Below, piece after piece: positions 3,628 to 49,466 of a stretch of DNA of 64,000 nucleotides; within the stretch, counting starts at the first letter, position 1; the number at the start of each line of letters is the position of its first letter. The notes below the pieces were generated by a model. The model worked only from the letters and a program-made list of their open reading frames with translations. It searched no databases and was not told where the DNA came from. The position numbers and the translations under genes were made by a program. The stretch is from an uncultured Anaerolineales bacterium (lineage in GTDB: Bacteria; Chloroflexota; Anaerolineae; Anaerolineales; UBA11858): assembly GCA_964344175.1 (NCBI GenBank), contig CAYFMI010000004.1:5805-69804 (forward strand). Reading direction: 5' to 3'.

Positions 3628-5058
3628 ATGTACCCAATCCATCTTCAGCAAATTGGCCCTCGGACTACGGCACACCTGGCACAAACAATGACTTTACTCG
3701 GCATGACCACCGCCGAGTTAAAGCAAAAAATTGAGGCCGAATTATCCCAAAACCCGGCCCTGGAATTACTTGAGGCGCGTAGCTGCCGCACCTGTGGGCG
3801 CACGCTGGTTGGGTCAACGCCTTGTTCAATTTGCTCTCGTCCCCATAATCCCGACAACGCCGAACCGATTGTCTTTACCTCCGCCCGGCAGGATTTTTAC
3901 GTCAACGCCGGGGGGAACACAACGAACTCACTTTCTCCCGAAGATTTACCGGATGACAATATCTCGCCCGAGGTTGATCTAGCCAGCTATGTGCTCCGGC
4001 AAATTGCGCCGGAGTTGGCTGAGCAAGACCGCGGGATTGCGGCCCATATTCTCACCAGCCTGGATGAGGATGGCTTGCTGCCAATCCCCCTCTTTGAGAT
4101 CAGCCGTTACCATCATGTTTCTCCCGAACGCGTCGGAGCAGTATTAGAATTGATCCAGCACTCGGAGCCAATTGGCGTAGGCGCCGGCAGCCCTCAAGAA
4201 GCGCTTTTGATCCAGCTCAACATTCTCGAACAGACTCAGGCGGTACCTCAGCATGCTGAACGCGCTATTCGAGAGGGGATGCACTTGCTCAGCCGCTACC
4301 ATTACGCCAAACTCGGCCAACTGCTGGACATCCCTCCCCAGGAGGCAGAGGCAATTGCTCAATTTATCAGTGCCAACCTCAACCCTTATCCGGGGCGCTC
4401 TCATTGGGGCAGTATCCGCCAGGGAAGCGAAGCTCATCCGGAGGTCTATCATCATCCCGACATTGTCATCAGCATGCTCAACGGGAAGAGCGATGGCCCG
4501 TTGGTCGTCGAATTGCTTTTCCCCTTATGGGGGTCCTTGCGCATCCAACCGCTCTTTCGCAGAGAGATCAAAAACGCCCCGAAGGACAAGGCTGCGGCAT
4601 GGCATGAAGATTTAGAAAGGGCCAATCTTTTGATAAAATGCCTGCGGCAGCGCGAGAACACCATGCAGCAACTGGCAACCGAAATCGCCAGAGAACAGCG
4701 CGGTTTCATTTTGCGGGGCGACCGGCATTCAAAACCGATGACGCGCGCCAGCATTGCTGACCGTCTCGGCGTGCATGAGTCGACAATTTCGCGGGCAGTA
4801 TCCGGAAAAACTGCGCAATTGCCAAATGGGCGCATCATCCCACTGAGTAAGTTTTTCGACCGCAGCCTTCACATTCGCGCCCAAATTCGAGAGATCATCA
4901 TGCATGAAAAGAATGCGTTGACGGACGCCCAAATTGCCGATATGCTCAAAGAATATGGGCATGATATTGCCCGGCGGACGGTTGCCAAATATCGCTCCAT
5001 GGAAGGGATACTATCGGCGCGCACGCGTCAAAGAGTCGCAAATCCATCCAATGGTTAA
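3628..5058 (+). CDS. rpoN: RNA polymerase sigma-54 factor RpoN
   Basis: Region I (LLGMTTAELKQKIEAELSQNPALELLE), core-binding region, C-terminal HTH and RpoN box (ARRTVAKYR). An unusual CxxC-N9-CxxC insertion follows region I. Confidence 0.93.
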   Translation: MYPIHLQQIGPRTTAHLAQTMTLLGMTTAELKQKIEAELSQNPALELLEARSCRTCGRTLVGSTPCSICSRPHNPDNAEPIVFTSARQDFYVNAGGNTTNSLSPEDLPDDNISPEVDLASYVLRQIAPELAEQDRGIAAHILTSLDEDGLLPIPLFEISRYHHVSPERVGAVLELIQHSEPIGVGAGSPQEALLIQLNILEQTQAVPQHAERAIREGMHLLSRYHYAKLGQLLDIPPQEAEAIAQFISANLNPYPGRSHWGSIRQGSEAHPEVYHHPDIVISMLNGKSDGPLVVELLFPLWGSLRIQPLFRREIKNAPKDKAAAWHEDLERANLLIKCLRQRENTMQQLATEIAREQRGFILRGDRHSKPMTRASIADRLGVHESTISRAVSGKTAQLPNGRIIPLSKFFDRSLHIRAQIREIIMHEKNALTDAQIADMLKEYGHDIARRTVAKYRSMEGILSARTRQRVANPSNG

Positions 5059-7042
5059 TTTCTTTTCTCGCTCCCGAACAGCGGCTTTGCCGCAACTCAG
5101 CATTGAAGATCTTGAAGAATTTCTATTGGTCATCTCCAAAGCGGCTATTCTGATTAACAACGAAAGCCGCCAGATCGTCGCTGTGAACCCAAAAGTGATG
5201 GAGATTAGCGCCTACACGCGGGCCGAGTTAAAGAGTATGCAAATTGAGCAACTTTTTAATGAGTGCATCGACGCCTATCTCGTCGCCCGTCAATCTCAAA
5301 GAGAACCCACTCTCCCGCGCCTGATTCTGCTGACGCGCAACGGGCATCATATCCCGGTAAGTTTACATGCCCAACCATTGGCGAATAATCGTCCCTGGGT
5401 TTTGCTGACCTTCGAAAGCGTTGATTTGCGCAAGCGAAAGAAGATTGGCGAAAGCCTGTTGAGCAACCTGCTTAACGAACAATTATTGGCGCTGGCTGTC
5501 GCCCTCTCTATTGCGGATCCCGACGCGGCCCTGAAGCGGGTGCTCGAAATTGGCGAGACATTGCTCCCAGAGAGTACATTGGGCGCGTATATCGGCCAGA
5601 GTCAAAAACCCAGCGCGAGGCTGGTCAGCGCGCGGGGGCCAGATGCAGACGTGCTCCCCGACGAGGTGTCTGCTCAGGACTTAAACCATTTGTTCAAGGC
5701 CTCACTCTGGCGGCAGGGCGAACGCGCCATTCTGACATTGTTGCACCAGCGCGTTCGCACAGCCAAATTCGCCTATCTGGCATCATCCCCCATCAGCGAA
5801 CCAAGTGAAACAAGAGCCTGGCTGGGGTTTCTCGTTGCAGGCGGGCGGAATACGCCCCACGAAAGCACTGCCCAAATCCTAAATATTCTGGCTGCCTTCA
5901 CCGGCACAATCATCCGCAATACTATTTTGTTGACCCACTTGCGCAGGTCGATCACAGACTGCCAGGCCCGCCTCAACACATGGGAATTGGCAAAAGACCA
6001 TATCCGGGATGGCGTCATTGTGATTTCACCTTCTATGCAGGTCGTATCGGTCAACCCATCGGCAGAATATATCTTCGGCTACGCTGCCCGAGAGATTCAA
6101 GGTGTGGCTATCGAAAACGTTCTCATTGGCAACAAGCATCTGATCCCGGCGATCCAAAACGCTTTGGAAGGCACGACTATTCCAAATATTGGTAATGCCA
6201 CCCTGCACCGCCGCGATGGGACAATCTTCCCGGCAGAATTATCCATCACGCCACTCCACAATGGAGATCAACTCTCCGGGGCGATCATCATTGTGCGCGA
6301 TATTAGCAAAGATGAACAAATTCGCATCCACACCCAACAACTTGAGCAACGCGCCTTACTCGGTGAAGTCACGGCAGTCTTTGCCCACGAAGTGCGCAAC
6401 CCCATCAACAACATCAGCATGGGGCTGCAACTGCTCGACCGGAGATTCGACAACGATCACCCTGAAAAAGAACGCATTCTGAATATGCAAGACGACTGTC
6501 AACGCCTGACCGCATTGATGGATTCGGTACTCGTTTTTTCACGCACGGGGAATTATGCATTCGTCCCCACAGATGCCCATCAGCTTCTGCAGCGCATTCT
6601 GAAGCGCTGGCACCCGCGCATGGCTCATGTCGGCGTTGAATATCATCTCCAGGCATCCAAAGATCTACCCGAAATCTCTGGCGATGCCCGCAGTCTGGAG
6701 CAAGTTTTTACCAATATTATCAGTAATGCCATCCAGGCTATGCAAGAGAATGGCGGACTGCTTTCGATTAAACTTTCTACAAAAAACAACCCTGGCGGTA
6801 AGACTATTGTACAGATCGATTTTTCCGATACTGGCCCAGGGATCCCTGAAGCGCATATCGAAAAAATATTCGACCCCTTCTACACGACCAACCCGCAGGG
6901 CACCGGCCTGGGTCTTGCCATCACCAAACAAATTATCACCGCCCATCGAGGCACAATTACAGTGACATCCTTCCCCGGCGGCACGATCTTTCACGTCCAG
7001 TTGCCGGTTGCCACCCCCACAACGGAGACACCCGCCTTATGA
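5051..7042 (+). CDS. PAS domain sensor histidine kinase (NtrB-like)
   Basis: H-box FAHEVRNPINNI with N and G boxes (SNAIQAM, DTGPGI, GTGLGLAITKQI), preceded by PAS-like segments. Start placed at ATG 5051 (MVNFFSR), overlapping the rpoN stop by 8 nt. The track's longer 4934 start lies inside rpoN. Confidence 0.9.
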   Translation: MVNFFSRSRTAALPQLSIEDLEEFLLVISKAAILINNESRQIVAVNPKVMEISAYTRAELKSMQIEQLFNECIDAYLVARQSQREPTLPRLILLTRNGHHIPVSLHAQPLANNRPWVLLTFESVDLRKRKKIGESLLSNLLNEQLLALAVALSIADPDAALKRVLEIGETLLPESTLGAYIGQSQKPSARLVSARGPDADVLPDEVSAQDLNHLFKASLWRQGERAILTLLHQRVRTAKFAYLASSPISEPSETRAWLGFLVAGGRNTPHESTAQILNILAAFTGTIIRNTILLTHLRRSITDCQARLNTWELAKDHIRDGVIVISPSMQVVSVNPSAEYIFGYAAREIQGVAIENVLIGNKHLIPAIQNALEGTTIPNIGNATLHRRDGTIFPAELSITPLHNGDQLSGAIIIVRDISKDEQIRIHTQQLEQRALLGEVTAVFAHEVRNPINNISMGLQLLDRRFDNDHPEKERILNMQDDCQRLTALMDSVLVFSRTGNYAFVPTDAHQLLQRILKRWHPRMAHVGVEYHLQASKDLPEISGDARSLEQVFTNIISNAIQAMQENGGLLSIKLSTKNNPGGKTIVQIDFSDTGPGIPEAHIEKIFDPFYTTNPQGTGLGLAITKQIITAHRGTITVTSFPGGTIFHVQLPVATPTTETPAL

Positions 7043-8208
7043 CAGCGACGATCCTTATTGTCGACGATGAAGAAAACGCCCGCAAACACATCGGAGATTT
7101 TCTTACCGAAGAGGGCTACGAAGTACTGACCGCGGCAAACCTGAGTGATGCCCGCACTCAAATAGCAAACGAGAGCGCCGACATCATATTGCTGGATGTG
7201 CAGCTCCCAGATGGCTATGGCCCCGACTTGCTCGAAGAGACCGCACAGATGAGCGCGCGCCCGCCGATCATCTTGATCACGGCACACGGCGATATCGACA
7301 TGGCTGTCGAAGCCATGCGTAATGGCGCTCACGATTTTTTGCAAAAGCCGATCCAATTCGAACGGCTCGATCAATCGATCCTGCGGGCTAAAGAACTGGT
7401 CGCTCTGCGCCGCGAGTTAAACCACCTGCGCGGTCGGCAGCGCGGCAGCAACGATTTTGTCGTGGGGAACAGTGCAGCCATGCGTAACCTGCTTCAGCAT
7501 GCCCAACGCGCCGCCCAAGCATCGGTGTCGGTATTAATCACTGGAGAAACCGGCACCGGAAAAGAAGTGTTAGCAAGTGCCATTCACCAAATGAGTCCCC
7601 GTGCCGAAAAACCCTTTGTGGGCATCAACTGTGCCGCCATTCAAAGCACGGTCTTAGAATCGGAATTATTTGGCTATGAGGCCGGCGCCTTTACCGGTGC
7701 GCAAAAACGAAAACACGGCTTGATGGAAGTCGCCGACGAAGGCATATTATTCCTCGATGAGATTTCGTCCATGCCGGTGGATATGCAGGCCAAACTGCTG
7801 CGCGCTATCGAAGAACAAGCCTTCCGCCGGGTCGGGGGCACCAACCTCATCAAAGTCGATGTCCAAATTCTGGCCGCATCGAACCGCGATTTGCAAAAAA
7901 TGATCGCATCCGGTCAATTCCGCGAAGATCTCTATTATCGTCTCAAAGTGGTTGATTTACACCTGCCCCCATTACGCGAGCGCAAAGAGGATATCCCCGC
8001 GCTGATTGCCCTCTTCATCCAGATGAACAATCTCCGCATGGGGTTGAACATTAACGATATGTCCCCGCGGGCAATGTCAGTGTTGGCACAACACGACTGG
8101 CCGGGCAATATTCGCGAACTACGCAACGTCATCGAACGCGCCATGCTGTTCTGCGATGATGCCGCAATTGACCTGCAGCACCTGTCGCCCGAACTGACTT
8201 CCGGGTAG
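7039..8208 (+). CDS. sigma-54-dependent response regulator (REC + AAA+), no DNA-binding domain
   Basis: REC (ILLDVQLPDG), Walker A GETGTGKE, GAFTGA loop (YEAGAFTGAQ), and sensor II GNIRELRNVIERA. The protein ends about 25 aa later with no Fis-type HTH. ATGA overlap with the upstream kinase. Confidence 0.92.
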   Translation: MTATILIVDDEENARKHIGDFLTEEGYEVLTAANLSDARTQIANESADIILLDVQLPDGYGPDLLEETAQMSARPPIILITAHGDIDMAVEAMRNGAHDFLQKPIQFERLDQSILRAKELVALRRELNHLRGRQRGSNDFVVGNSAAMRNLLQHAQRAAQASVSVLITGETGTGKEVLASAIHQMSPRAEKPFVGINCAAIQSTVLESELFGYEAGAFTGAQKRKHGLMEVADEGILFLDEISSMPVDMQAKLLRAIEEQAFRRVGGTNLIKVDVQILAASNRDLQKMIASGQFREDLYYRLKVVDLHLPPLRERKEDIPALIALFIQMNNLRMGLNINDMSPRAMSVLAQHDWPGNIRELRNVIERAMLFCDDAAIDLQHLSPELTSG

Positions 8209-8216
8209 AAGACAGT

Positions 8217-8245
8217 TTGATTTTTTGACGATTTCGCAGTAAACT
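8217..8245 (+). promoter_or_regulatory. sigma-70-type promoter candidate for tatA
   Basis: TTGATT (8217-8222), 17-nt spacer, TAAACT (8240-8245), about 35 nt upstream of the tatA ATG. Pattern match only. Confidence 0.3.
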
Positions 8246-8280
8246 AGACTCACGTTGATCAACAAACCAGGAGTAGTACT

Positions 8281-8460
8281 ATGAATTTAGGTCCAACTGA
8301 GCTGATTATTATATTGATTATTGTTATCCTCCTCTTTGGTGTTGGCCGCATTGGGAAAATTGCTGGCGAACTCGGTGGCGGCATTCGCGCCTTCCGCGAG
8401 GGCTTGAAGGACGACGAAGAAAACGAAGAGGCACCCCCCACCGACGAACATCAAGCCTGA
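8281..8460 (+). CDS. tatA: twin-arginine translocase subunit TatA/E
   Basis: 59-aa ORF below the track threshold: MNLGPTELIIILIIVILLFGVGRIGKIAGELGGGIRAFREGLKDDEENEE... It shows the typical TatA TM helix, FG hinge and amphipathic helix. AGGAG RBS sits 8 nt upstream. The minus ORF 8259..8441 is its shadow. Confidence 0.85.
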   Translation: MNLGPTELIIILIIVILLFGVGRIGKIAGELGGGIRAFREGLKDDEENEEAPPTDEHQA

Positions 8461-8491
8461 CCTCTTGTTAGGTTTATGTCTTTATGTATAA

Positions 8492-8528
8492 AAGGTCTTG
8501 CTGGGTTCATTGCCGCAAGGCCTTTATT
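8492..8528 (+). terminator. putative intrinsic terminator after tatA
   Basis: Stem AGGTCTTGC / GCAAGGCCT (one G-U pair) followed by TTTATT. It overlaps the track's long modA start, supporting the internal modA start. Confidence 0.4.
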
Positions 8529-8545
8529 CATGCGGAAAATCGCAC

Positions 8546-9322
8546 ATGTCACGGCAGTCAAGATTGCTTCTAACTTTGGCGCTCATCATCGCAACGCAAA
8601 TTAGCGGTGGTTGCCAGAGTATGCAAGCACCTCAAGGCTTAACCATTGCGGCTGCATCCAGCTTGCACACTGCCTTTCGCGAAATCGGCACATCTTTTAG
8701 CCAACAAACCGGGGTTCCGGTCACATTTTCTTTTGCAGCAACCGGGACACTCACCCAGCAAATGAAACATGGTGCGCCTTTTGACATCTTTGCCGCCGCA
8801 GATACACGCCACGTCGCCGATTTGACCGAGCAAGGCTTTATTGCCCCAGGCAGCCAGGCAATATTCGCCAATGGCGAAATTGCGTTAGTCTTTCACCGAA
8901 ATTCCGGGCTAGAAATTAACACCCTCGACGATCTGACGACCGAATCGATTGAACGAATAACGATTGCCAACCCAAAGATAGCGCCCTACGGCATGGCCGC
9001 CCAACAAGCGCTCGAACATGCTGGTTTATGGCAGCAATATGAAGATCGCCTCATTTACGGAGAAAATGTGCGCCAATCGCTGCAATTTGTTGAGAGCGGC
9101 GAAGTTACCATTGGCATCCTGCCCGTCTCCCTGCTGCTTGAAAGCGACCTTCTTCGCATCCCCATTAACGCCGAATTCTATCACCCTGTCGAACACGGCA
9201 TAGGGATCGCGACTCAAACTCAGCATGCGAAGGATGCGCAACTTTTCTTGGCGTTCATACTCAGCCCCGAGGGGCAAACAATCTTGAACAAGCATGGGCT
9301 ATCCTCGCCCAAAAAACCCTAA
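8546..9322 (+). CDS. modA: molybdate ABC transporter substrate-binding lipoprotein ModA
   Basis: Signal/lipobox (LALIIATQISGGC) and ModA-type motifs (IAAASSL, FAATGTLTQQMKHGAPFDIFAAAD). Followed by modB and modC. Start at ATG 8546. Confidence 0.9.
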   Translation: MSRQSRLLLTLALIIATQISGGCQSMQAPQGLTIAAASSLHTAFREIGTSFSQQTGVPVTFSFAATGTLTQQMKHGAPFDIFAAADTRHVADLTEQGFIAPGSQAIFANGEIALVFHRNSGLEINTLDDLTTESIERITIANPKIAPYGMAAQQALEHAGLWQQYEDRLIYGENVRQSLQFVESGEVTIGILPVSLLLESDLLRIPINAEFYHPVEHGIGIATQTQHAKDAQLFLAFILSPEGQTILNKHGLSSPKKP

Positions 9323-9334
9323 TCGTCTACGTAC

Positions 9335-9988
9335 ATGATCCCCCTGTTAATCTCGCTGCGCGTGGCAACGCTGGCAACATTCATCGCAGCCTTCGTTGGC
9401 ACCACTCTGGCAGCCCTGCTCGCCAAACGTCAGGGCTTGTTCTGGTATTTCCTGGATGGCGCCATCAACCTGCCCCTTGTTCTCCCGCCAACGGTATTGG
9501 GATACTACCTACTGATACTCTTTAGTCAGCGCACACTGTTAGGGGGCTGGCTGGCTTCTTTGGGAATTCAACTCACCTTTACCTGGGTCGGAGCCACACT
9601 CGCTGCCAGCGCGGTGGCGCTGCCCCTGGTGATGCAATCGGCGCGCGCCGCCATCGAAGCGGTTCCCCAGGACTTCCAGGATGTTGCCCGAACGCTGGGA
9701 CGCGCCCCCCTGGGGGTCTTCTTCACGGTCACATTGCCCTTAGCCTGGCGCGGCGTGATGGCCGGCATCATCCTGGCCTTTGCGCGTGCCTTAGGCGAGT
9801 TTGGGGCCACCCTGATGGTAGCCGGTAACATTCCCGGAAAAACCCAGACGCTTTCTATCGCCATTTATGATGCCGTTCAGGCCGGAGAAAGCCTGCGCGC
9901 CAATCAGCTCTCGCTGCTGCTCACCGTAGTAGCCATTACCCTATTGATCTTGATTCGCACGCTGACAACGCGCCTGGCCGAGAAATGA
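9335..9988 (+). CDS. modB: molybdate ABC transporter permease ModB
   Basis: 5-6 TM permease with ModB-like NLPLVLPPTVLGYYLL and the EAA-type loop (ARALGEFGATLMVAGNIPG). Confidence 0.92.
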   Translation: MIPLLISLRVATLATFIAAFVGTTLAALLAKRQGLFWYFLDGAINLPLVLPPTVLGYYLLILFSQRTLLGGWLASLGIQLTFTWVGATLAASAVALPLVMQSARAAIEAVPQDFQDVARTLGRAPLGVFFTVTLPLAWRGVMAGIILAFARALGEFGATLMVAGNIPGKTQTLSIAIYDAVQAGESLRANQLSLLLTVVAITLLILIRTLTTRLAEK

Positions 9989-11124
9989 TGCAGCCAACCC
10001 AACCGCAAAGCACAGCCCTCGATGTCACCATCAACCTGGTTTTAGAAGATTTCCATCTCGAAGCCAACTTTCAGGCCGACGCGGAGATCATCGCTATCTT
10101 TGGGCCTTCGGGAGCCGGAAAAAGCACCACCCTGCGCGCCATTGCCGGGTTGCTCTCGCCCCAGCATGGCATCATCCGCCTGGGAGAAAAAACTCTCTTC
10201 GACGACAGGAAAAAGATCAATTTGCCGCCCCAAAGCCGCGGGGTTGGGTATGTGCCTCAAAATTTTGCCCTCTTTCCACATCTGACCACCTCCGCGAATA
10301 TTGCCTACGGCCTCCACCGCGCCACAAAAGAACATCGCCGCCAAAGGGTGTCTGAACTATTGCACTTGCTCCAGCTCGAAAAACTCGCTCAACGCAAAGC
10401 CAGCGAATTGTCTGGCGGGCAGCAACAACGCGTTGCCCTGGCGCGGGCACTGGCCCCCAATCCAGACATTTTACTCATGGACGAACCCTTTGCCGCGCTA
10501 GACGAGACTTTGCGCCACACCCTGCGCGGCGAATTGCGCACCATTCCACAGCGCTTTGGGGTTCCCCTGATTCTGGTTACCCACAACCTCGGCGAAGCGC
10601 ACAGCCTTGCCAGTCAATTGGTGATCCTCGATCAGGGTAAAATGCTCCAGGCTGGGCCGCGTAAAACCATCCTGCATCACCCCATCACACCCGCCGTGGC
10701 ACGCATTGTCGGCATGAACAATATTCTCAAGATGACAATTGCAGAACAGGATGAGGGAAAAAACGTACTCAACTGGGGCGGGATTCAGCTTGCCGCGCCG
10801 CCTCTCCCTAGAGGCTTGCAACTCGGACGTGAAGTTTTGGTGGGCATCCGCCCCGAGGGGATTCGCCTCGTCGAGACGCGCCCCCCAAATTGTATCCCCC
10901 ACACCAACCGTATTGAAGCGCACCTGCACACCGATGAAGACCTGGGCCACGAGCACCACCTGACCGTCCTGCCCCGCGCGGCCCCCGACACTCCGCTCGA
11001 AATCCGCATCGCCGCGCCGGATTTCGAAGCCAGCGGTTTGCGCGTTGGCAGCCGCTGTCATCTTGAAATCTCCCCTGAGGCAATGCACATCTTCCATGAA
11101 CACGCTTCGATAGCCCCGGCATGA
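9985..11124 (+). CDS. modC: molybdate ABC transporter ATP-binding protein ModC (with TOBE-like C-terminus)
   Basis: Walker A GPSGAGKST, signature LSGGQQQRVALARAL, Walker B LLMDEPF, plus a C-terminal extension of about 120 aa. ATGA overlap with modB. Confidence 0.92.
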   Translation: MMQPTQPQSTALDVTINLVLEDFHLEANFQADAEIIAIFGPSGAGKSTTLRAIAGLLSPQHGIIRLGEKTLFDDRKKINLPPQSRGVGYVPQNFALFPHLTTSANIAYGLHRATKEHRRQRVSELLHLLQLEKLAQRKASELSGGQQQRVALARALAPNPDILLMDEPFAALDETLRHTLRGELRTIPQRFGVPLILVTHNLGEAHSLASQLVILDQGKMLQAGPRKTILHHPITPAVARIVGMNNILKMTIAEQDEGKNVLNWGGIQLAAPPLPRGLQLGREVLVGIRPEGIRLVETRPPNCIPHTNRIEAHLHTDEDLGHEHHLTVLPRAAPDTPLEIRIAAPDFEASGLRVGSRCHLEISPEAMHIFHEHASIAPA

Positions 11125-13628
11125 ATATAACCTCGCTTCTCAGTCATTGGCGGGCCGACCCAACCGTAGGCGGTAACCTCACCGCCTGGGAAACCATGCC
11201 TGCCCGTCAGGCATCCTACGCCCCCCTGCCAGAAACCCTTCACCCCTGGCTGCGCCAGGCGCTCAACGAGGAGGGCATTCAGCAGCTTTACACACATCAG
11301 GCACAAGCCTGGCAATGCTTGCAGGCTGGAGATCACATTGCCCTGGCGACCGATACGGCCAGCGGCAAGACACTCGCTTATAACCTCCCCATTCTCAATA
11401 GCTTACTGCACAACCGGCAGGCCCGGGCGCTCTATTTATTCCCCACCAAAGCGCTGGCCCAGGATCAACTTGCCGGAGTCGAGCGGTTGCTCAAAACCGC
11501 AAAAGAGCCATCCCTTTTTATTTATCCGGGAAGCTATGATGGTGATACGCCTCGCAATACCAGAGTGGCTATGCGCAGCAAATCCCGCCTGATTATTTCC
11601 AACCCCGACATGCTGCATTTTGGCATTCTTCCACATCACACCAACTGGGCAGAGTTTTTCGGCAGCTTACGCTATATCCTGCTTGATGAGATGCATATTT
11701 ATCGGGGCGTGTTCGGTTCGCATGTCGCCAATGTCATCCGGCGGCTGAAGCGCATTGCCCATTTTTACGGGGCGCGGCCTCAATTTGTGCTCACCTCGGC
11801 GACCATTGGCAACCCGGCAGAACTCGCCCAAAGATTGACCGAAGAGCCAGTTACCTTGATTGAACAAGACGGATCGGGGCGCGGGCCAAAACACTTTTTG
11901 ATCTACAATCCCCCCTTGATTGACCCTGAACTCGGATTGCGGGCCAGTATGCTGGGGGAAAGTGTCCGTCTGGCAGCTGATTTACTCAGCTACGACATCC
12001 AGACAATTCTCTTTGGGCGCACGCGGCGCACGGTAGAAGTGCTGCTGAAATATTTGCGCCAGGCCGTCCCCCTCCAGGCTGCCCAGGTGCGCGCCTACCG
12101 CAGCGGTTATTTACCCAAATTACGCCGGGAAATCGAGAGCGGCTTGCGCACCGGCAAGACACGCTGCGTGGTTGCCACTACGGCCCTGGAACTGGGCATT
12201 GATATTGGCGGAATGGGAGCCACACTACAAGCGGGCTACCCCGGCACAATTGCAGGAACCTGGCAGCAAGCCGGGCGGGCCGGGCGCGGGCTGGAGGCAT
12301 CCATCTCGGTTTTAGTGACATCCCCCAGCCCAGCCGACCAATATCTGGCGCGCCACCCGGAATATTTTTTTGAGCGCAGCCCGGAACACGCTCTCGTCAA
12401 CCCGGATAATTTGCTCATATTGCTCCAACATCTACAATGTGCAGCTTTCGAGATTCCCTTCAAGGACGGGGAGAACTTTGGGGATCTCACCCCCACTGAG
12501 GTTGCCGCGTTCTTGAACATCCTACACAAAAATGGGGTCTTGCATAAATCTCAGGATCGATTCTTCTGGATGGGCGACACCTATCCTGCTGCCGAAATCT
12601 CGCTGCGCAGCGCTTCGACGCAACCCTACCTGCTGCACAACACCGCTACCCATCCCCCCGAGATCTTTGGCAGCGTTGATAGTGAAGCGGCGCTCTGGAT
12701 GGTGCACCCCGGTGCGGTTTACTTGCACGAAGGCGAAAGTTTTGTTGTCGAAGAACTGGATCTTGAACGGCATCTCGTACAACTCAGCCCACAAGAGACA
12801 GATTACTTCACCCGTCCACGGCAAGAAAGTGATGTCCAACTCATAGAATTGGGGAAAGCGCAGCGTTGCAAGGGCGGCAGCAAAGCCTTTGGAGAAATTG
12901 GCGTGACGACAACGGTCACCGGTTACCAGATGATTCGTTGGGAGAGCCACGAAAAAATCGGTCAGCGCCCTCTAGAGCTTCCCCCAACACAGTTGCTGAC
13001 AAGCGGCTATTGGCTGAGCGTTTCTGAAGAAAGCGTTGACCATTTGCGTGCGGATGGGCTTTGGAGCAATGCCCCCAACAATTACGGGCCGGGCTGGCGC
13101 AAACAACGCCTGGCTGCTCTAGAAAGAGACCAGTATCGCTGTCAATCCTGCGGAGTCAGCGCTGAACATACCCAATTGCACGTCCACCACAAAGAACCGC
13201 TGCGGGCGTTTTCCAGCTATCTAGAAGCCAACCGCCTGGAAAATTTGGTCAGTCTATGCCCGTCTTGCCATCGCCGCGCGGAAAGCCGGGTGCGCATTCG
13301 CAGCGGGTTGGCCGGGCTGGCCTATGCCTTCCACCATCTGGCCCCGCTTTTTCTGATGTGCGACCCGCGCGACCTGGGTGTGCACACCGAGGCGCAGTCA
13401 CCGTTGGGCGAAGGGAAACCCGTTGTGGCGATTTACGAAATGATCCCTGCAGGGATCGGCTTCAGCCAACGCCTTTTCGAGTTTCACAATGCACTGATCG
13501 AGCGCGCCGGCGAGGTAGTCGCGAATTGCCCCTGCGCCGATGGCTGCCCTTCTTGTGTTGGTCCTGGGGGTGAGGCCGGGGCCGGGGGCAAACCCGAGAC
13601 TTTTGCGCTGATTGAGCAATTGCGCTAA
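11121..13628 (+). CDS. DEXH-box helicase of the MrfA/YprA (DUF1998) family with inserted HNH nuclease motif
   Basis: Helicase motifs TDTASGKT, LLDEMH, LTSAT, QQAGRAGRG. C-terminal DUF1998/MZB Cys cluster CPCADGCPSCVG. HNH signature at 13140-13271: CQSCG...HVHHKEPL...N...CPSCHRRAE. ATGA overlap with modC. Confidence 0.9.
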   Translation: MNITSLLSHWRADPTVGGNLTAWETMPARQASYAPLPETLHPWLRQALNEEGIQQLYTHQAQAWQCLQAGDHIALATDTASGKTLAYNLPILNSLLHNRQARALYLFPTKALAQDQLAGVERLLKTAKEPSLFIYPGSYDGDTPRNTRVAMRSKSRLIISNPDMLHFGILPHHTNWAEFFGSLRYILLDEMHIYRGVFGSHVANVIRRLKRIAHFYGARPQFVLTSATIGNPAELAQRLTEEPVTLIEQDGSGRGPKHFLIYNPPLIDPELGLRASMLGESVRLAADLLSYDIQTILFGRTRRTVEVLLKYLRQAVPLQAAQVRAYRSGYLPKLRREIESGLRTGKTRCVVATTALELGIDIGGMGATLQAGYPGTIAGTWQQAGRAGRGLEASISVLVTSPSPADQYLARHPEYFFERSPEHALVNPDNLLILLQHLQCAAFEIPFKDGENFGDLTPTEVAAFLNILHKNGVLHKSQDRFFWMGDTYPAAEISLRSASTQPYLLHNTATHPPEIFGSVDSEAALWMVHPGAVYLHEGESFVVEELDLERHLVQLSPQETDYFTRPRQESDVQLIELGKAQRCKGGSKAFGEIGVTTTVTGYQMIRWESHEKIGQRPLELPPTQLLTSGYWLSVSEESVDHLRADGLWSNAPNNYGPGWRKQRLAALERDQYRCQSCGVSAEHTQLHVHHKEPLRAFSSYLEANRLENLVSLCPSCHRRAESRVRIRSGLAGLAYAFHHLAPLFLMCDPRDLGVHTEAQSPLGEGKPVVAIYEMIPAGIGFSQRLFEFHNALIERAGEVVANCPCADGCPSCVGPGGEAGAGGKPETFALIEQLR

Positions 13629-13663
13629 CTCACTCGCCTGGACTTCTGTCTTGTCAAATAAAA

Positions 13664-13689
13664 AGAGCCGCACATGATGGTGCGGCTCT
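13664..13689. terminator. bidirectional stem-loop between convergent genes
   Basis: 10-bp stem AGAGCCGCAC / GTGCGGCTCT with a 6-nt loop. An A-run lies on one side and a T-rich stretch on the other, between the helicase (+) and the small acidic protein gene (-). Confidence 0.65.
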
Positions 13690-13712
13690 TAAGATTTCAT
13701 ATGATGCATTAC

Positions 13713-14483: not shown

Positions 14484-15740
14484 CTATTTTACGCCTTCGA
14501 AGAACCAGGCTTCTGCCGTGGCCCCTTCGGGTAAGAATTTAACACCAGATGGAACAATTAGTAAAGCGTTAGCATGTACCAAAGAACGCAAATTGCCTGA
14601 ACCCTGGTGGCCGGTTAAACGCGCTACCCAGCGGTTATCTTCTTGAGATGCAACCACGCGCAAGTAACTTTCGCGACCATCCGATTCAAGCGCTTCGAGT
14701 AAGGTTACCTGACGAGTAATTCGGGGTTCATCGGGTAAGCCCATCATCTTGATCAACGCTGGACGCACAAACACTTGAAAGCCGACATAGGCGGACACCG
14801 GATTCCCCGGCAACCCAAAATAGGGCAGCCCCCTATAACTACCAAAAGCCAATGGCTTACCGGGGCGCATATTTACCCGCCAAAGAGTCAACGTACCTGC
14901 TTGATCGAGTACGGCGCGCACAAAATCAAACGCGCCCACGCTGACCCCGCCCGTAGAGAGTAGTAAATCTACGCCATCATCAACTGCATCTTCTATTTTT
15001 TGGCGCACGCTATCCAGATCATCGGGGACGATGCCCATATCCAAGACTTCAGCGCCTAACTGCGAAATGAGGGCCTGCAGCATATAGGAATTGGACTCGT
15101 AGATCTTGCCTGGCTCCAGTGCTACACCCGGTTTCAGTAATTCGTCCCCAGGGGACATCACCCCAATGCGCGGGCGGCGAAAAACACGCACCTCTGCCGC
15201 CCCTATCATCGCCAAGACACCCACATCTTGAGGGCGCAGCCGCCGATTTGGCACTAATACTCGTTCGCCCTTTTGAACATCCTGTCCCTGAGGGCGCACA
15301 TTCTCGCCAACCTGGGCGGCATGAAAGATGCTTACCTGCGCCGGCGCCGAAATCCCTGCGGAATGGATGCCGACATCGGTGCGTTCAACCGGCACAACCG
15401 CATCGGCCCCGGCGGGCAGCGCTGCCCCGGTCATTATGCGGGCGGTTTGTCGTGGGGCTATTTCCACTTTGGGCAATAACCCGGCAGGAATATCGGCCAC
15501 TACCTTCAGTGCCACGCCCTGACCGGGAGCAGCATTTTGCACGTCTGCGGCGCGCACGGCAAAACCATCCATGCTGGAATTTGCAAAAGCAGGTAAATCA
15601 AACTTCGAAAAAATAGCCTCCGCCAATACCCTTCCGGCGGTCTGGCGTAACGGAACCAGTTCTGCTGCTAAAGGCGAGAACGCCTCAAGCAGATAACGGC
15701 GGGCAAGTGGGATGGGGGTGAGGTCAGTCTGGTCAGCCAT
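14484..15740 (-). CDS. moeA: molybdopterin molybdenumtransferase MoeA
   Basis: Full-length MoeA-like sequence (NSSMDGFAV, LLSTGGVSVGAFD, GLPGNPVSA). Confidence 0.93.
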   Translation of the reverse strand: MADQTDLTPIPLARRYLLEAFSPLAAELVPLRQTAGRVLAEAIFSKFDLPAFANSSMDGFAVRAADVQNAAPGQGVALKVVADIPAGLLPKVEIAPRQTARIMTGAALPAGADAVVPVERTDVGIHSAGISAPAQVSIFHAAQVGENVRPQGQDVQKGERVLVPNRRLRPQDVGVLAMIGAAEVRVFRRPRIGVMSPGDELLKPGVALEPGKIYESNSYMLQALISQLGAEVLDMGIVPDDLDSVRQKIEDAVDDGVDLLLSTGGVSVGAFDFVRAVLDQAGTLTLWRVNMRPGKPLAFGSYRGLPYFGLPGNPVSAYVGFQVFVRPALIKMMGLPDEPRITRQVTLLEALESDGRESYLRVVASQEDNRWVARLTGHQGSGNLRSLVHANALLIVPSGVKFLPEGATAEAWFFEGVK

Positions 15741-49178: not shown

Positions 49179-49232
49179 GAAATCTGAAACTTACGCTTAG
49201 CAACGCAGCAACCAACATTCAAATAAACCGAT

Positions 49233-49466
49233 TTCTGGGGAGAGACTCGCATTCGTTGCGGGCACCGAAGGGGCAAACTCTGAGCAAAGACGAAGAGTGA
49301 AACTCTCAGGTAAAAGGACCCGGTTATCGAGCAACCTCTGGAAAGTTGCTGGCAGCCCAAAAGCCAGATTCCAACACCGACGGGGCAAGCCCTGCCAGGC
49401 AGGGCGAATCTCTCAGGTTTACGACAGAGCGCACGCCGAGTATCTACGCGTGCGCTCTTTGCTTCT
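49233..49466 (+). promoter_or_regulatory. tandem glycine riboswitch with terminator expression platform
   Basis: Aptamer 1: CTGGGGAGAG...GCACCGAAGGGGCAA...CTCTCAGGTAAAAGGAC. Aptamer 2: CTCTGGAAAG...ACACCGACGGGGCAA...CTCTCAGGTTTACGACAGAG. An 11-bp terminator stem AGAGCGCACGC / GCGTGCGCTCT (49426-49458) shares CAGAG with the P1 helix of aptamer 2. Confidence 0.9.

Follow-up and report, generated by a model that had tools for sequence, protein, structure and literature searches.

An MrfA/YprA-type helicase with an HNH nuclease insert, a candidate excision-repair enzyme of Anaerolineae and Trueperaceae

The window, i.e. the whole 64-kb stretch of DNA that was analysed, contains an intact open reading frame on the plus strand (11121-13628), which according to the ORF list and its translation encodes 835 residues plus a stop codon. 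The product is an SF2 DExH helicase of the MrfA/YprA type with a complete HNH insert. Neighbouring genes are rpoN, a histidine kinase/two-component system, a sigma-54 activator, tatA, modABC, VKOR, moeA and relA. The features of the locus are listed below.

8498-9322, plus strand: modA (Pfam SBP_bac_11)
9335-9988, plus strand: modB (Pfam BPD_transp_1)
9985-11124, plus strand: modC (Pfam ABC_tran and TOBE)
11121-13628, plus strand: whole gene, MrfA/YprA-type SF2 helicase with HNH insert (ORF list, 6ZNP match, Foldseek)
11121-11870, plus strand: N-terminal region (NTR) and RecA1, aa 1-250 (Pfam DEAD 58-232, collinear with the NTR and RecA1 of MrfA); motifs I TASGKT (K83), II DEMH (D189, E190, H192) and III SAT (226-228)
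11871-12389, plus strand: RecA2, aa 251-423, with motif VI QQAGRAGR (382-389) (Pfam Helicase_C 290-389)
12390-12620, plus strand: winged-helix domain, aa 424-500 (Pfam WHD_HRQ1 426-498, E 3e-11)
12621-13028, plus strand: OB fold and beta-sheet connector (CON), aa 501-636 (collinear alignment to MrfA, as far as residue 634)
13029-13136, plus strand: insert leader, aa 637-672, a helix, W648, Y655-G656-x-x-W659 and a helix ending in R669-D670 (no counterpart in MrfA)
13137-13286, plus strand: HNH nuclease core, aa 673-722 (Pfam HNH 674-722, conserved residues, models)
13305-13625, plus strand: MZB (DUF1998) zinc-binding domain, aa 729-835 (Pfam MZB 733-813, E 2e-19; aligned to MrfA 647-749)
13527-13556, plus strand: four-cysteine site of the MZB domain, C803, C805, C809 and C812 (CPCADGCPSC)
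13663-13690, no strand assigned: hairpin with an 11-bp stem and 7 G-C pairs (terminator-like scan)

The start codon of the helicase (ATG, 11121-11123) overlaps the stop codon of modC (TGA, 11122-11124) in an ATGA at 11121-11124. This start is backed by the N-terminal conservation of the homologues, where L6, L7 and W10 are invariant or nearly so. From this overlap, the original prediction had concluded that the gene is co-transcribed with a molybdate transporter. The overlap is real, and the link to the transporter is a lineage-specific insertion of modABC. Among the loci compared, only L006 also has modABC between tatA and the helicase, while in the other close relatives tatA is found directly upstream of the helicase. 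The overlap is lineage-specific and probably incidental, and modABC belongs to the surroundings of the helicase gene, not to its functional parts. At the other end, where the helicase and VKOR genes converge, lies the hairpin. The scan assigned it to the minus strand, where a T-rich tail follows; its stem is palindromic, and it is likely a transcription terminator.

The protein matches B. subtilis MrfA (6ZNP) with an E-value of 1.2e-196 using phmmer. A full-length model was obtained with a pLDDT of 80, and its top Foldseek matches are MrfA 6ZNP and 6ZNQ, with TMt between 0.80 and 0.83. In the model, the OB/CON region forms long beta strands within 503-634, and two segments of the winged helix (431-447 and 485-499) have low confidence. 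The residues of motifs I, II, III and VI are invariant in 34 homologues, and Q382, R386 and G388 of motif VI even across 150 distant representatives. In MrfA, mutating the residues equivalent to K83, D189/E190/H192, S226-A227-T228 and Q382-R389 abolishes function. The C-terminal cluster CPCADGCPSCVG (aa 803-814) contains the cysteines C803, C805, C809 and C812, all invariant in the homologue alignment. The protein shares with the repair branch of MrfA/YprA the SF2 DExH core with its motifs, a WH-OB-CON-MZB array collinear with MrfA (phmmer, Foldseek) and a four-cysteine zinc site. The Pfam matches and the 6ZNP match bear out the original description of an 835-aa MrfA/YprA-type helicase with a full motif set and an intact MZB site.

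Two blocks of the protein are collinear with B. subtilis MrfA, residues 16-636 (17-634 in MrfA) and residues 729-833 (647-749 in MrfA). Between them, an insert of about 92 residues (637-728) takes the place of a linker of about 12 residues. As both flanks align collinearly to MrfA, the insert is located at the CON/MZB junction. By structure, the domain limits of MrfA are OB 491-556, CON 557-630 and MZB 631-749 (PMC7797055), and the insert falls inside this MZB domain yet shortly before the stretch matched by the Pfam MZB model.

The core of the insert matches Pfam HNH (PF01844, residues 674-722) with an E-value of 9.2e-9 and 35.8 bits against a gathering cut-off of 21.4, i.e. far beyond chance. 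The HNH signature between the helicase core and the cysteine cluster had been proposed from its motifs, which are CQSCG (aa 674-678, nt 13140-13154), HVHHKEPL (aa 687-694) and CPSCHRRAE (aa 713-721, nt 13257-13283). All of them are present, the only correction being the end of CPSCHRRAE, which was given as 13280, three nucleotides short. The key residues are a zinc finger of the CxxC...CxxC type (C674, C677, C713, C716), H689-H690, N704, N708 and the metal-binding H717, and H690 is the predicted general base.

According to our models, the insert is folded, a point that the original prediction had proposed to check by structure prediction. In the full-length model, the beta-beta-alpha element consists of the strands 687-690 and 709-712 and the helix 714-724; the confidence of the insert is only moderate there, with block means between 61 and 88. 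The same elements are found in a model of the insert alone, pLDDT 82. Almost all Foldseek matches of this second model are HNH nucleases, and the best is the stand-alone GVE2 HNH endonuclease (5H0M) with an E-value of 5.6e-4. A profile of the insert also matches 5H0M best (E 1e-9, leader included), followed by the HNH domains of IscB, McrA and a group II intron maturase. The leader aligns to the N-terminal part of 5H0M, H690, N708 and H717 correspond to H93, N109 and H118, and C674, C677, C713 and C716 to C76, C79, C114 and C117. Nicking by GVE2 HNH requires H93, N109 and H118 (PMC5304195). By analogy with its nearest characterised relatives, the insert would nick DNA rather than cut both strands. 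GVE2 HNH and the related small phage/terminase-associated nickases share the CxxC...HH/DH...N...CxxCH layout with the insert, but they are free-standing proteins of about 130 residues and partners of phage terminases.

The original prediction had proposed to check whether the HNH residues are conserved in orthologs, and they are. H690, N704, N708 and H717 are kept in 38-40 out of 40 divergent representatives and the four zinc-finger cysteines in 39-40, while the motifs of the leader are conserved in 31-41 of the 41 insert-bearing representatives. The key HNH residues are kept in 84 out of 84 loci, regardless of the presence of mrfB. The motif is altered in two representatives only. In P0147 the substitutions have the appearance of active-site decay, and in P0150 the HNH region diverges and stops early. 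Among 34 close homologues, the mean pairwise identity is 0.64 for the HNH core against 0.64-0.69 for the RecA domains, and among 31 divergent homologues it is 0.50 against 0.45. The divergence of the insert correlates with that of the core (Mantel r 0.75, equalled by none of 2000 permutations). Purifying selection on the insert matches that on the motor, and the two co-diverge.

At least 330 species-representative genomes carry the fusion; most of them are Anaerolineae, and it also occurs in Trueperaceae (Deinococcota). It is present in all the best 120 matches of each of two large searches, and the site of the insert is identical in every case. Genomes of cultured Anaerolineae in RefSeq also contain it, annotated merely as "DEAD/DEAH box helicase". 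Our literature search found no published description of an MrfA-type helicase with an HNH insert. The architecture, which the original prediction did not know to be described, is therefore undescribed as far as this search goes, but it is not rare; it is common and spread over two bacterial phyla.

A survey of the neighbourhoods, also suggested earlier, shows that the synteny around the gene is stable across the compared loci. In 30 out of 76 related loci (39%), the gene is directly followed, in the same orientation, by a homologue of MrfB, mostly at a distance below 70 bp; this homologue matches 8UN9 with an E-value of 1.8e-33 and also contains TPR. All three Trueperaceae-group contigs examined (L084, L085, L086) have mrfB downstream. 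In L084 and L086, polA-SRAP-uvrC precedes the helicase gene at a gap of 5 bp; mrfB overlaps the end of the helicase gene by 4 bp, and SprT-like and RNase T genes come next. Adjacency to uvrC was seen in these two contigs only, and in L085 recQ is nearby. Neither the window nor its closest relatives have mrfB next to the gene, and no MrfB-like gene was found in the 64-kb window using tblastn at E 1e-8. An adjacent mrfB is not obligatory for the repair branch, as Bell et al. recognise a "YprA only" sub-branch of repair proteins without conserved context. The proposal of a one-polypeptide machine, with the HNH replacing MrfB, fails as a general rule given these 30 loci and three contigs, but it may hold for the sub-lineage of the window, where no mrfB is adjacent.

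The closest known system is B. subtilis MrfA (YprA; 6ZNP/6ZNQ/6ZNS), the helicase of the MrfAB pathway for mitomycin C repair. The two proteins share the seven-part architecture (NTR, RecA1, RecA2, WH, OB, CON, MZB), 36-37% identity in a structure-based alignment, the DExH motifs and the four-cysteine zinc site, and many relatives retain a downstream mrfB. They differ in the 92-residue HNH nuclease and in the missing adjacent mrfB in the window. SftH of M. smegmatis (TIGR03817, "DECH_helic") belongs to the same DUF1998 family and matches residues 22-643 with an E-value of 4e-194, but it has no nuclease domain. The TIGR03817 equivalog scores 647 bits, below its cut-off of 874, in two stretches split by the insert, and indicates a related clade only. 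By analogy with MrfA and SftH, the helicase would have 3'-to-5' polarity. Burby and Simmons 2018 and Bell et al. 2025 noted MrfA-MrfB fusion proteins, which likewise combine a repair helicase and a nuclease in one polypeptide. However, their nuclease is MrfB, a DEDDh 3'-5' exonuclease, while the present protein carries an HNH endonuclease and is often accompanied by MrfB. The eukaryotic ZRANB3, an SNF2 annealing helicase whose HNH is C-terminal, and Cas3, an SF2 helicase with an HD nuclease, also couple a motor to a strand-cutting nuclease, but they belong to other helicase families, place the nuclease differently, and their homology is limited to generic domains.

We lean, with moderate confidence, towards a housekeeping role in DNA repair within the MrfA/YprA branch, in which the protein would be an excision-repair helicase that brings its own nickase. 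An ATP-driven motor (RecA1/RecA2, winged helix, OB, CON and the MZB "drum") would have acquired a small HNH nicking endonuclease. The HNH domain would cut a single strand of the DNA, either at the motor or in front of it, and the nick would be the free end needed by the helicase and, where present, by the 3'-to-5' exonuclease MrfB. The damaged strand would then be unwound and removed and the gap refilled, an excision-repair route carrying its own incision activity.

The HNH domain may in this way supply the cutting step missing from the known MrfAB repair pathway, which has no known incision enzyme or targeting factor and where the loading of MrfA on DNA is unexplained. In MrfA, the wide funnel through which DNA enters is built from CON, MZB, RecA2 and OB. 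More tentatively, an MrfA motor stalled at, or recruited by, a lesion could fire its own nickase at this funnel, and the resulting nick could start helicase unwinding and degradation of the damaged strand by MrfB or another exonuclease; MrfB acts on nicked and linear dsDNA (PMC11194089). The insert would then be the missing incision activity of a compact, UvrABC-independent pathway of single origin, shared by Chloroflexota and Trueperaceae. The HNH is inessential to the basic mechanism of the family, as MrfAB of B. subtilis functions although its helicase has no nuclease built in. An insert in the OB-CON-MZB region need not be catalytic either, as this region is a hot spot for small zinc-binding inserts, known from defence YprA helicases (PMC12458937).

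A variant of the repair reading, which we regard as rather unlikely, is that the enzyme would act on replication forks or recombination intermediates and not in lesion excision. It would remodel stalled forks, D-loops or crosslink intermediates, with a structure-specific cut by the HNH, similar to ZRANB3 or to Hrq1/RecQ4-type functions. The Pfam winged-helix match is indeed to the HRQ1 model, recQ is near the gene in L085, and L084 and L086 contain SRAP and SprT-like genes, which suggest damage encountered at replication. However, the ZRANB3 HNH is a weak match both by sequence (E 0.012) and by fold (E 0.28). The partner that recurs is MrfB, a 3'-5' exonuclease of the excision type, and the gene is linked most tightly to uvrC. 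It is improbable that the insert is a non-catalytic structural or DNA-binding zinc module, like those of defence YprA proteins or DotN. The zinc-binding inserts in the same region of other YprA branches (PMC12458937) and a weak match to DotN/IcmJ, a non-nuclease HNH-like protein, would fit this. Against it, the best matches of the insert are active nucleases, and conservation extends beyond the zinc cysteines to H690, both asparagines and H717, with P0147 and P0150 as the only departures.

An anti-phage or anti-plasmid effector degrading foreign DNA, as DruE (Druantia), DrmA/B-C (DISARM) or Cas3 do, is very improbable, although the YprA family is in wide use among defence systems (PMC12458937), the HNH resembles those of ZorE and IscB, and the PADLOC models SngC, BrxHII, DruE, DrmA and DpdF/J match the helicase. 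These matches are confined to the generic helicase core, with E-values of 1e-37 or worse against 1e-196 for MrfA. We compared the protein with DISARM, Dpd, Druantia, ARMADA, BRIGADE and TALON. In Druantia (DruE, C-terminal PLD), ARMADA (C-terminal Vsr) and DISARM (DrmAB with the PLD nuclease DrmC), a YprA-MZB helicase also works with a nuclease, and defence YprA helicases have extra zinc modules within OB-CON-MZB (PMC12458937, PMC13192584). However, they lie in defence operons and fall into the second main branch of the family, and their nucleases, C-terminal or separate, are PLD, Vsr/PD-(D/E)xK or an inactive RNase H, never HNH. The protein studied here lacks the BrxA-like insert behind RecA1, and it ends with MZB, without a PLD, Vsr or RNase H domain at the C-terminus. 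Beside the gene we found no DrmB/DrmC/methylase, no DruH and others, no BrxHII-like helicase plus PglX-like methylase, no 7-deazaguanine genes and no NERD/TPR-CSD/TBP. No defence genes are neighbours in the window or in related loci, where housekeeping genes (also in 80 other loci) and mrfB are the sole neighbours, so that the DISARM-type role once suggested is not supported. Nor was the fusion found on the phages or plasmids searched, and the Trueperaceae-group contigs link it to uvrC, polA and mrfB. Least likely of all is a selfish homing element of the HNH type that entered the helicase gene in frame and persists without benefit to the host. In-frame HNH insertion elements exist (PMC11855218), and free-standing HNH endonucleases from haloviruses and phages share 43-51% identity with the HNH part. 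Yet no intein or intron signatures were noticed, the insert is uniformly present at a constant site, and it is conserved as strongly as the motor, with which it co-diverges. As the first origin of the insert, such a selfish in-frame HNH insertion may well be right.

The open reading frame at 11121-13628 (+) is intact and encodes 835 residues, and its start codon is right because the N-terminus is conserved among homologues. All motifs quoted in the original prediction of a helicase with an HNH signature were recovered, except that CPSCHRRAE ends at 13283 and not at 13280. Pfam assigns five domains to the protein:
Residues 58-232: DEAD
Residues 290-389: Helicase_C
Residues 426-498: HRQ1-type winged helix
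Residues 674-722: HNH (E 9.2e-9, 35.8 bits, gathering score 21.4)
Residues 733-813: MZB, the MrfA zinc-binding domain

The protein belongs to the MrfA/YprA family. It matches B. subtilis MrfA/YprA (PDB 6ZNP) with an E-value of 1.2e-196 in two collinear pieces, residues 16-636 to MrfA 17-634 and residues 729-833 to MrfA 647-749. The AlphaFold2 model, built from 34 homologues, has a mean pLDDT of 80 and a pTM of 0.78, and its target-normalised TM-score to the MrfA crystal structures is 0.80-0.83. Motifs I (K83), II (DEMH 189-192), III (SAT 226-228) and VI (382-389) are invariant in the homologues, as are the MZB cysteines C803, C805, C809 and C812. According to Roske et al. (PMC7797055), CON covers residues 557-630 and MZB residues 631-749 of MrfA, and the wide DNA entry funnel is built from RecA2, OB, CON and MZB. 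Given these limits and the collinear alignment, the insert is placed at the CON/MZB junction, where about 92 residues (637-728) are found instead of the linker of about 12 residues in MrfA. The database label "DEAD/DEAH box helicase" could be improved for such proteins.

According to profile and fold comparisons, the insert is a complete predicted HNH nuclease. Using a profile of 31 diverse inserts, the free-standing HNH endonuclease of phage GVE2 (5H0M) was found among the solved structures with an E-value of 1e-9, and the alignment takes in the insert leader (Y...W...R.RD) ahead of the first CxxC. The next matches are the HNH domains of IscB, EcoKMcrA and group II intron maturase. In fold, a model of the insert only (pLDDT 82) matches almost exclusively HNH nucleases; 5H0M ranks first and below it are McrA, Cap5, Cas5-HNH, the Gme nicking HNH, Cas9 and ZRANB3. 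The GVE2 enzyme is a nicking enzyme, whose activity requires H93, N109 and H118 and whose zinc ligands are C76, C79, C114 and C117 (PMC5304195). In the alignment to the 31-insert profile the catalytic residues correspond to H690, N708 and H717, and the zinc ligands to C674, C677, C713 and C716. The active site is intact.

Conservation was studied in 40 insert-bearing representatives of 50%-identity clusters, 36-53% identical overall to the query. The catalytic and zinc residues are kept in 38-40 of the 40, and the leader motif W648...Y655-G656-x-x-W659 is likewise conserved. All key HNH residues are also conserved across 84 loci, with an adjacent mrfB or none; N704 and N708 lie within the peptide pattern that picked these loci and are not independent evidence there. 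The identity of the HNH core is 0.64 versus 0.64-0.69 for the RecA domains in 34 close homologues, and 0.50 versus 0.45 in 31 divergent ones, both sets being picked by whole-protein score, as loci picked by insert similarity had given bias. The divergence of the insert tracks that of the core (Mantel r 0.75, reached in 0 of 2000 permutations). Because the HNH core is conserved like the motor and co-diverges with the core, the insert has been inherited vertically and kept by selection as part of the protein; it is not a passenger in decay or a selfish element of sporadic occurrence.

Some representative proteins deviate. In P0147, VYHRR and CGACY replace VHHK and CxxCH, which resembles active-site decay, and in P0150 the HNH region is divergent and stops early, perhaps by a frameshift or an assembly error. 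Others, including P0122, P0123, P0126, P0133, P0163 and P0195, contain an additional segment of 6-16 residues between the HH strand and the Asn helix (e.g. GY-VPG...NE-Y or ANPALR...LP...AW). The presence of this segment in one group suggests that the insert exists in two structural subtypes.

The architecture had been proposed as undescribed. A full-text literature search (MrfA, DUF1998, YprA, Anaerolineae helicase + HNH) found no description in print; however, the fusion is common and not rare. In a collection of 5.8 billion proteins, all 120 best clusters (58-66% identity) share the same five Pfam domains. Of the best 149 hits in an exhaustive search of 1.84 billion representatives, 40 have the insert, as judged with an HMM made for it, and from about hit 30 onwards the alignments are interrupted precisely at residues 636-647. 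When one genome per species was scanned with a single peptide pattern from the insert, the fusion was found in at least 330 genomes, a lower bound skewed to Anaerolineae-like inserts because it depends on this single pattern, which derives from a 6-sequence alignment. The best 80 of these 330 all belong to Chloroflexota; most are titled Anaerolineae or Anaerolineales, and the rest are a few "uncultured Chloroflexia" and some titled to the phylum only. Among the 80 are the cultured Bellilinea caldifistulae, Levilinea saccharolytica and Thermanaerothrix daxensis.

The HNH is present in all proteins of a high-GC group (P0143 and the 36 clusters listed, 53-62% identity), which includes Trueperaceae (Deinococcota) proteins, an assignment based on three named MAG proteins. 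The next-closest relatives of this group are Anaerolineae fusion proteins. Organism names were obtained for two of 20 divergent representatives, both Chloroflexota. The neighbour-joining tree of the helicase core is star-like and does not show the number of insert origins, and most of the apparently insert-less tips within its insert groups are short or cover part of the query. A common insertion site and leader motif speak for an insert that arose once and later moved between phyla. The fusion was not found in phage or plasmid records. Free-standing HNH genes of haloviruses and phages, with 43-51% identity to the HNH part by itself, could plausibly have given rise to the insert. Halobacterium megaplasmids (plasmid hits H1-H9) encode DUF1998-type DEAD/DEAH helicases without the HNH insert, with a C-terminal match of 24% identity; these probably belong to the haloarchaeal defence-type YprA systems of Bell et al. 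(PMC12458937).

An mrfB-like gene is found directly 3' of the helicase gene on the same strand in 30 of the 76 loci that extend far enough downstream, and the gap is mostly below 70 bp. The encoded protein combines a match to the MrfB exonuclease core (8UN9, E 1.8e-33) with a TPR tail. The idea that the HNH stands in for MrfB in a one-polypeptide machine is thus contradicted as a general rule, as the two coexist in these loci. Across the related loci mrfB is the only functionally meaningful recurrent neighbour, the others being ordinary housekeeping genes. In two contigs of the Trueperaceae group the genes form a compact cluster on one strand:
L084:457-11482: polA, SRAP, uvrC, 5 bp, helicase/HNH, 4-bp overlap, mrfB
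L086:607-11356: the same order and spacing

Beyond mrfB, both contigs carry a SprT-like gene, which is divergent, and a gene for an RNase T-family exonuclease; in addition, uvrB is found at the upstream edge of L084. In a third contig of the group, L085, recQ is nearby and mrfB is downstream of the helicase gene. The L084/L086 locus is a DNA-repair neighbourhood and not a defence island. Both UvrC proteins retain GIY-YIG and so do not suggest that the HNH compensates for a nuclease-less UvrC. SRAP (the YedK/HMCES family) and SprT-like proteins are known as DNA-protein-crosslink factors, and finding their genes together with uvrC and mrfAB is noteworthy on its own.

On balance, and with moderate confidence, we favour an excision-repair helicase that brings its own nickase. 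The HNH lies between two elements lining the DNA entry funnel and would cut one strand only. The 3'-to-5' motor could enter at such a cut, which would also give a 3' end to MrfB or another exonuclease. Duplex DNA that is nicked or linear is a substrate that MrfB breaks down (PMC11194089). We infer the helicase polarity, nicking rather than double-strand cutting, the strand choice, the trigger and the lesion type.

ZRANB3-like processing of forks or recombination intermediates is a possible but rather doubtful role; the HNH of ZRANB3 is a weak match to the 31-insert profile. We consider it improbable that the insert, with its conserved catalytic residues, is a non-catalytic zinc module. A defence effector would be expected in another setting than the repair genes of L084 and L086, and we give this role very little credence. 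Least credible is a selfish homing insert, against which stand the vertical inheritance and selection seen in conservation and co-divergence.

The MrfAB route of excision repair in bacteria was discovered recently, and for its first steps damage finding, MrfA loading and the first cut are unknown; the MrfAB papers state the same of targeting, DNA loading and further partners. In the 2025 survey of about 52,000 YprA homologues (PMC12458937), the repair helicases form "YprA only" and MrfAB branches and the associated nucleases are MrfB, PLD, Vsr/PD-(D/E)xK, EEP and an inactive RNase H. Its main text mentions HNH in a reference title only, and the supplementary text searched has a single mention, where a structural match to a DISARM DrmA domain bears HNH in its name. 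With the fusion, HNH joins the nucleases recruited by YprA-family helicases. A conserved nickase-type domain within the helicase, under strong selection in hundreds of species, offers a testable hypothesis for the MrfAB cutting step, to which the linkage with uvrC, polA and mrfB in two Trueperaceae-group contigs adds, and the protein is a ready-made subject for biochemistry. Helicase-nuclease fusions are generally common, and the present one is therefore an interesting variant rather than a new principle.

In the window, the helicase gene is surrounded by the following features:
3628-8457, upstream: rpoN (sigma-54), PAS histidine kinase, sigma-54-dependent response regulator, tatA
8281-11124, upstream, same strand: modABC
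13663-13690, between the convergent helicase and VKOR genes: strong palindromic hairpin with an 11-bp stem
14484-15740, downstream, opposite strand: moeA

Downstream are convergent VKOR, moeA and relA/spoT. The gene backbone, moeA included, is the same in the closest relatives (L001, L003, L004, L059); there the rpoN-histidine kinase-response regulator-tatA block is in conserved synteny with the helicase, tatA is directly upstream of it and modABC is missing. In L005 and L017 the downstream genes are kept and the upstream sequence is lacking. Among the loci compared, only the window and L006 have the order tatA-modABC-helicase, so the modC overlap reflects a lineage-specific insertion of modABC. 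The proposed co-transcription with a molybdate transporter is borne out in part: the helicase ATG overlaps the modC stop (ATGA at 11121-11124) and the gene is probably part of the mod transcript in this lineage, but the pairing with molybdate transport is considered incidental and not functional, despite moeA nearby on the other strand. No strong terminator turned up when the stretch from modA to the helicase stop was scanned.

Rfam and tRNA scans gave nothing relevant to the helicase gene; in the window they found no tRNA genes and a single Rfam family, a glycine riboswitch aptamer (RF00504, 63.7 bits) at 49227-49331 (+). The hairpin at 13663-13690 is likely a shared terminator of the helicase and VKOR genes. 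In the equivalent gap, L001 and L003 contain a small ORF of 76-79 residues on the minus strand with no Pfam hit.
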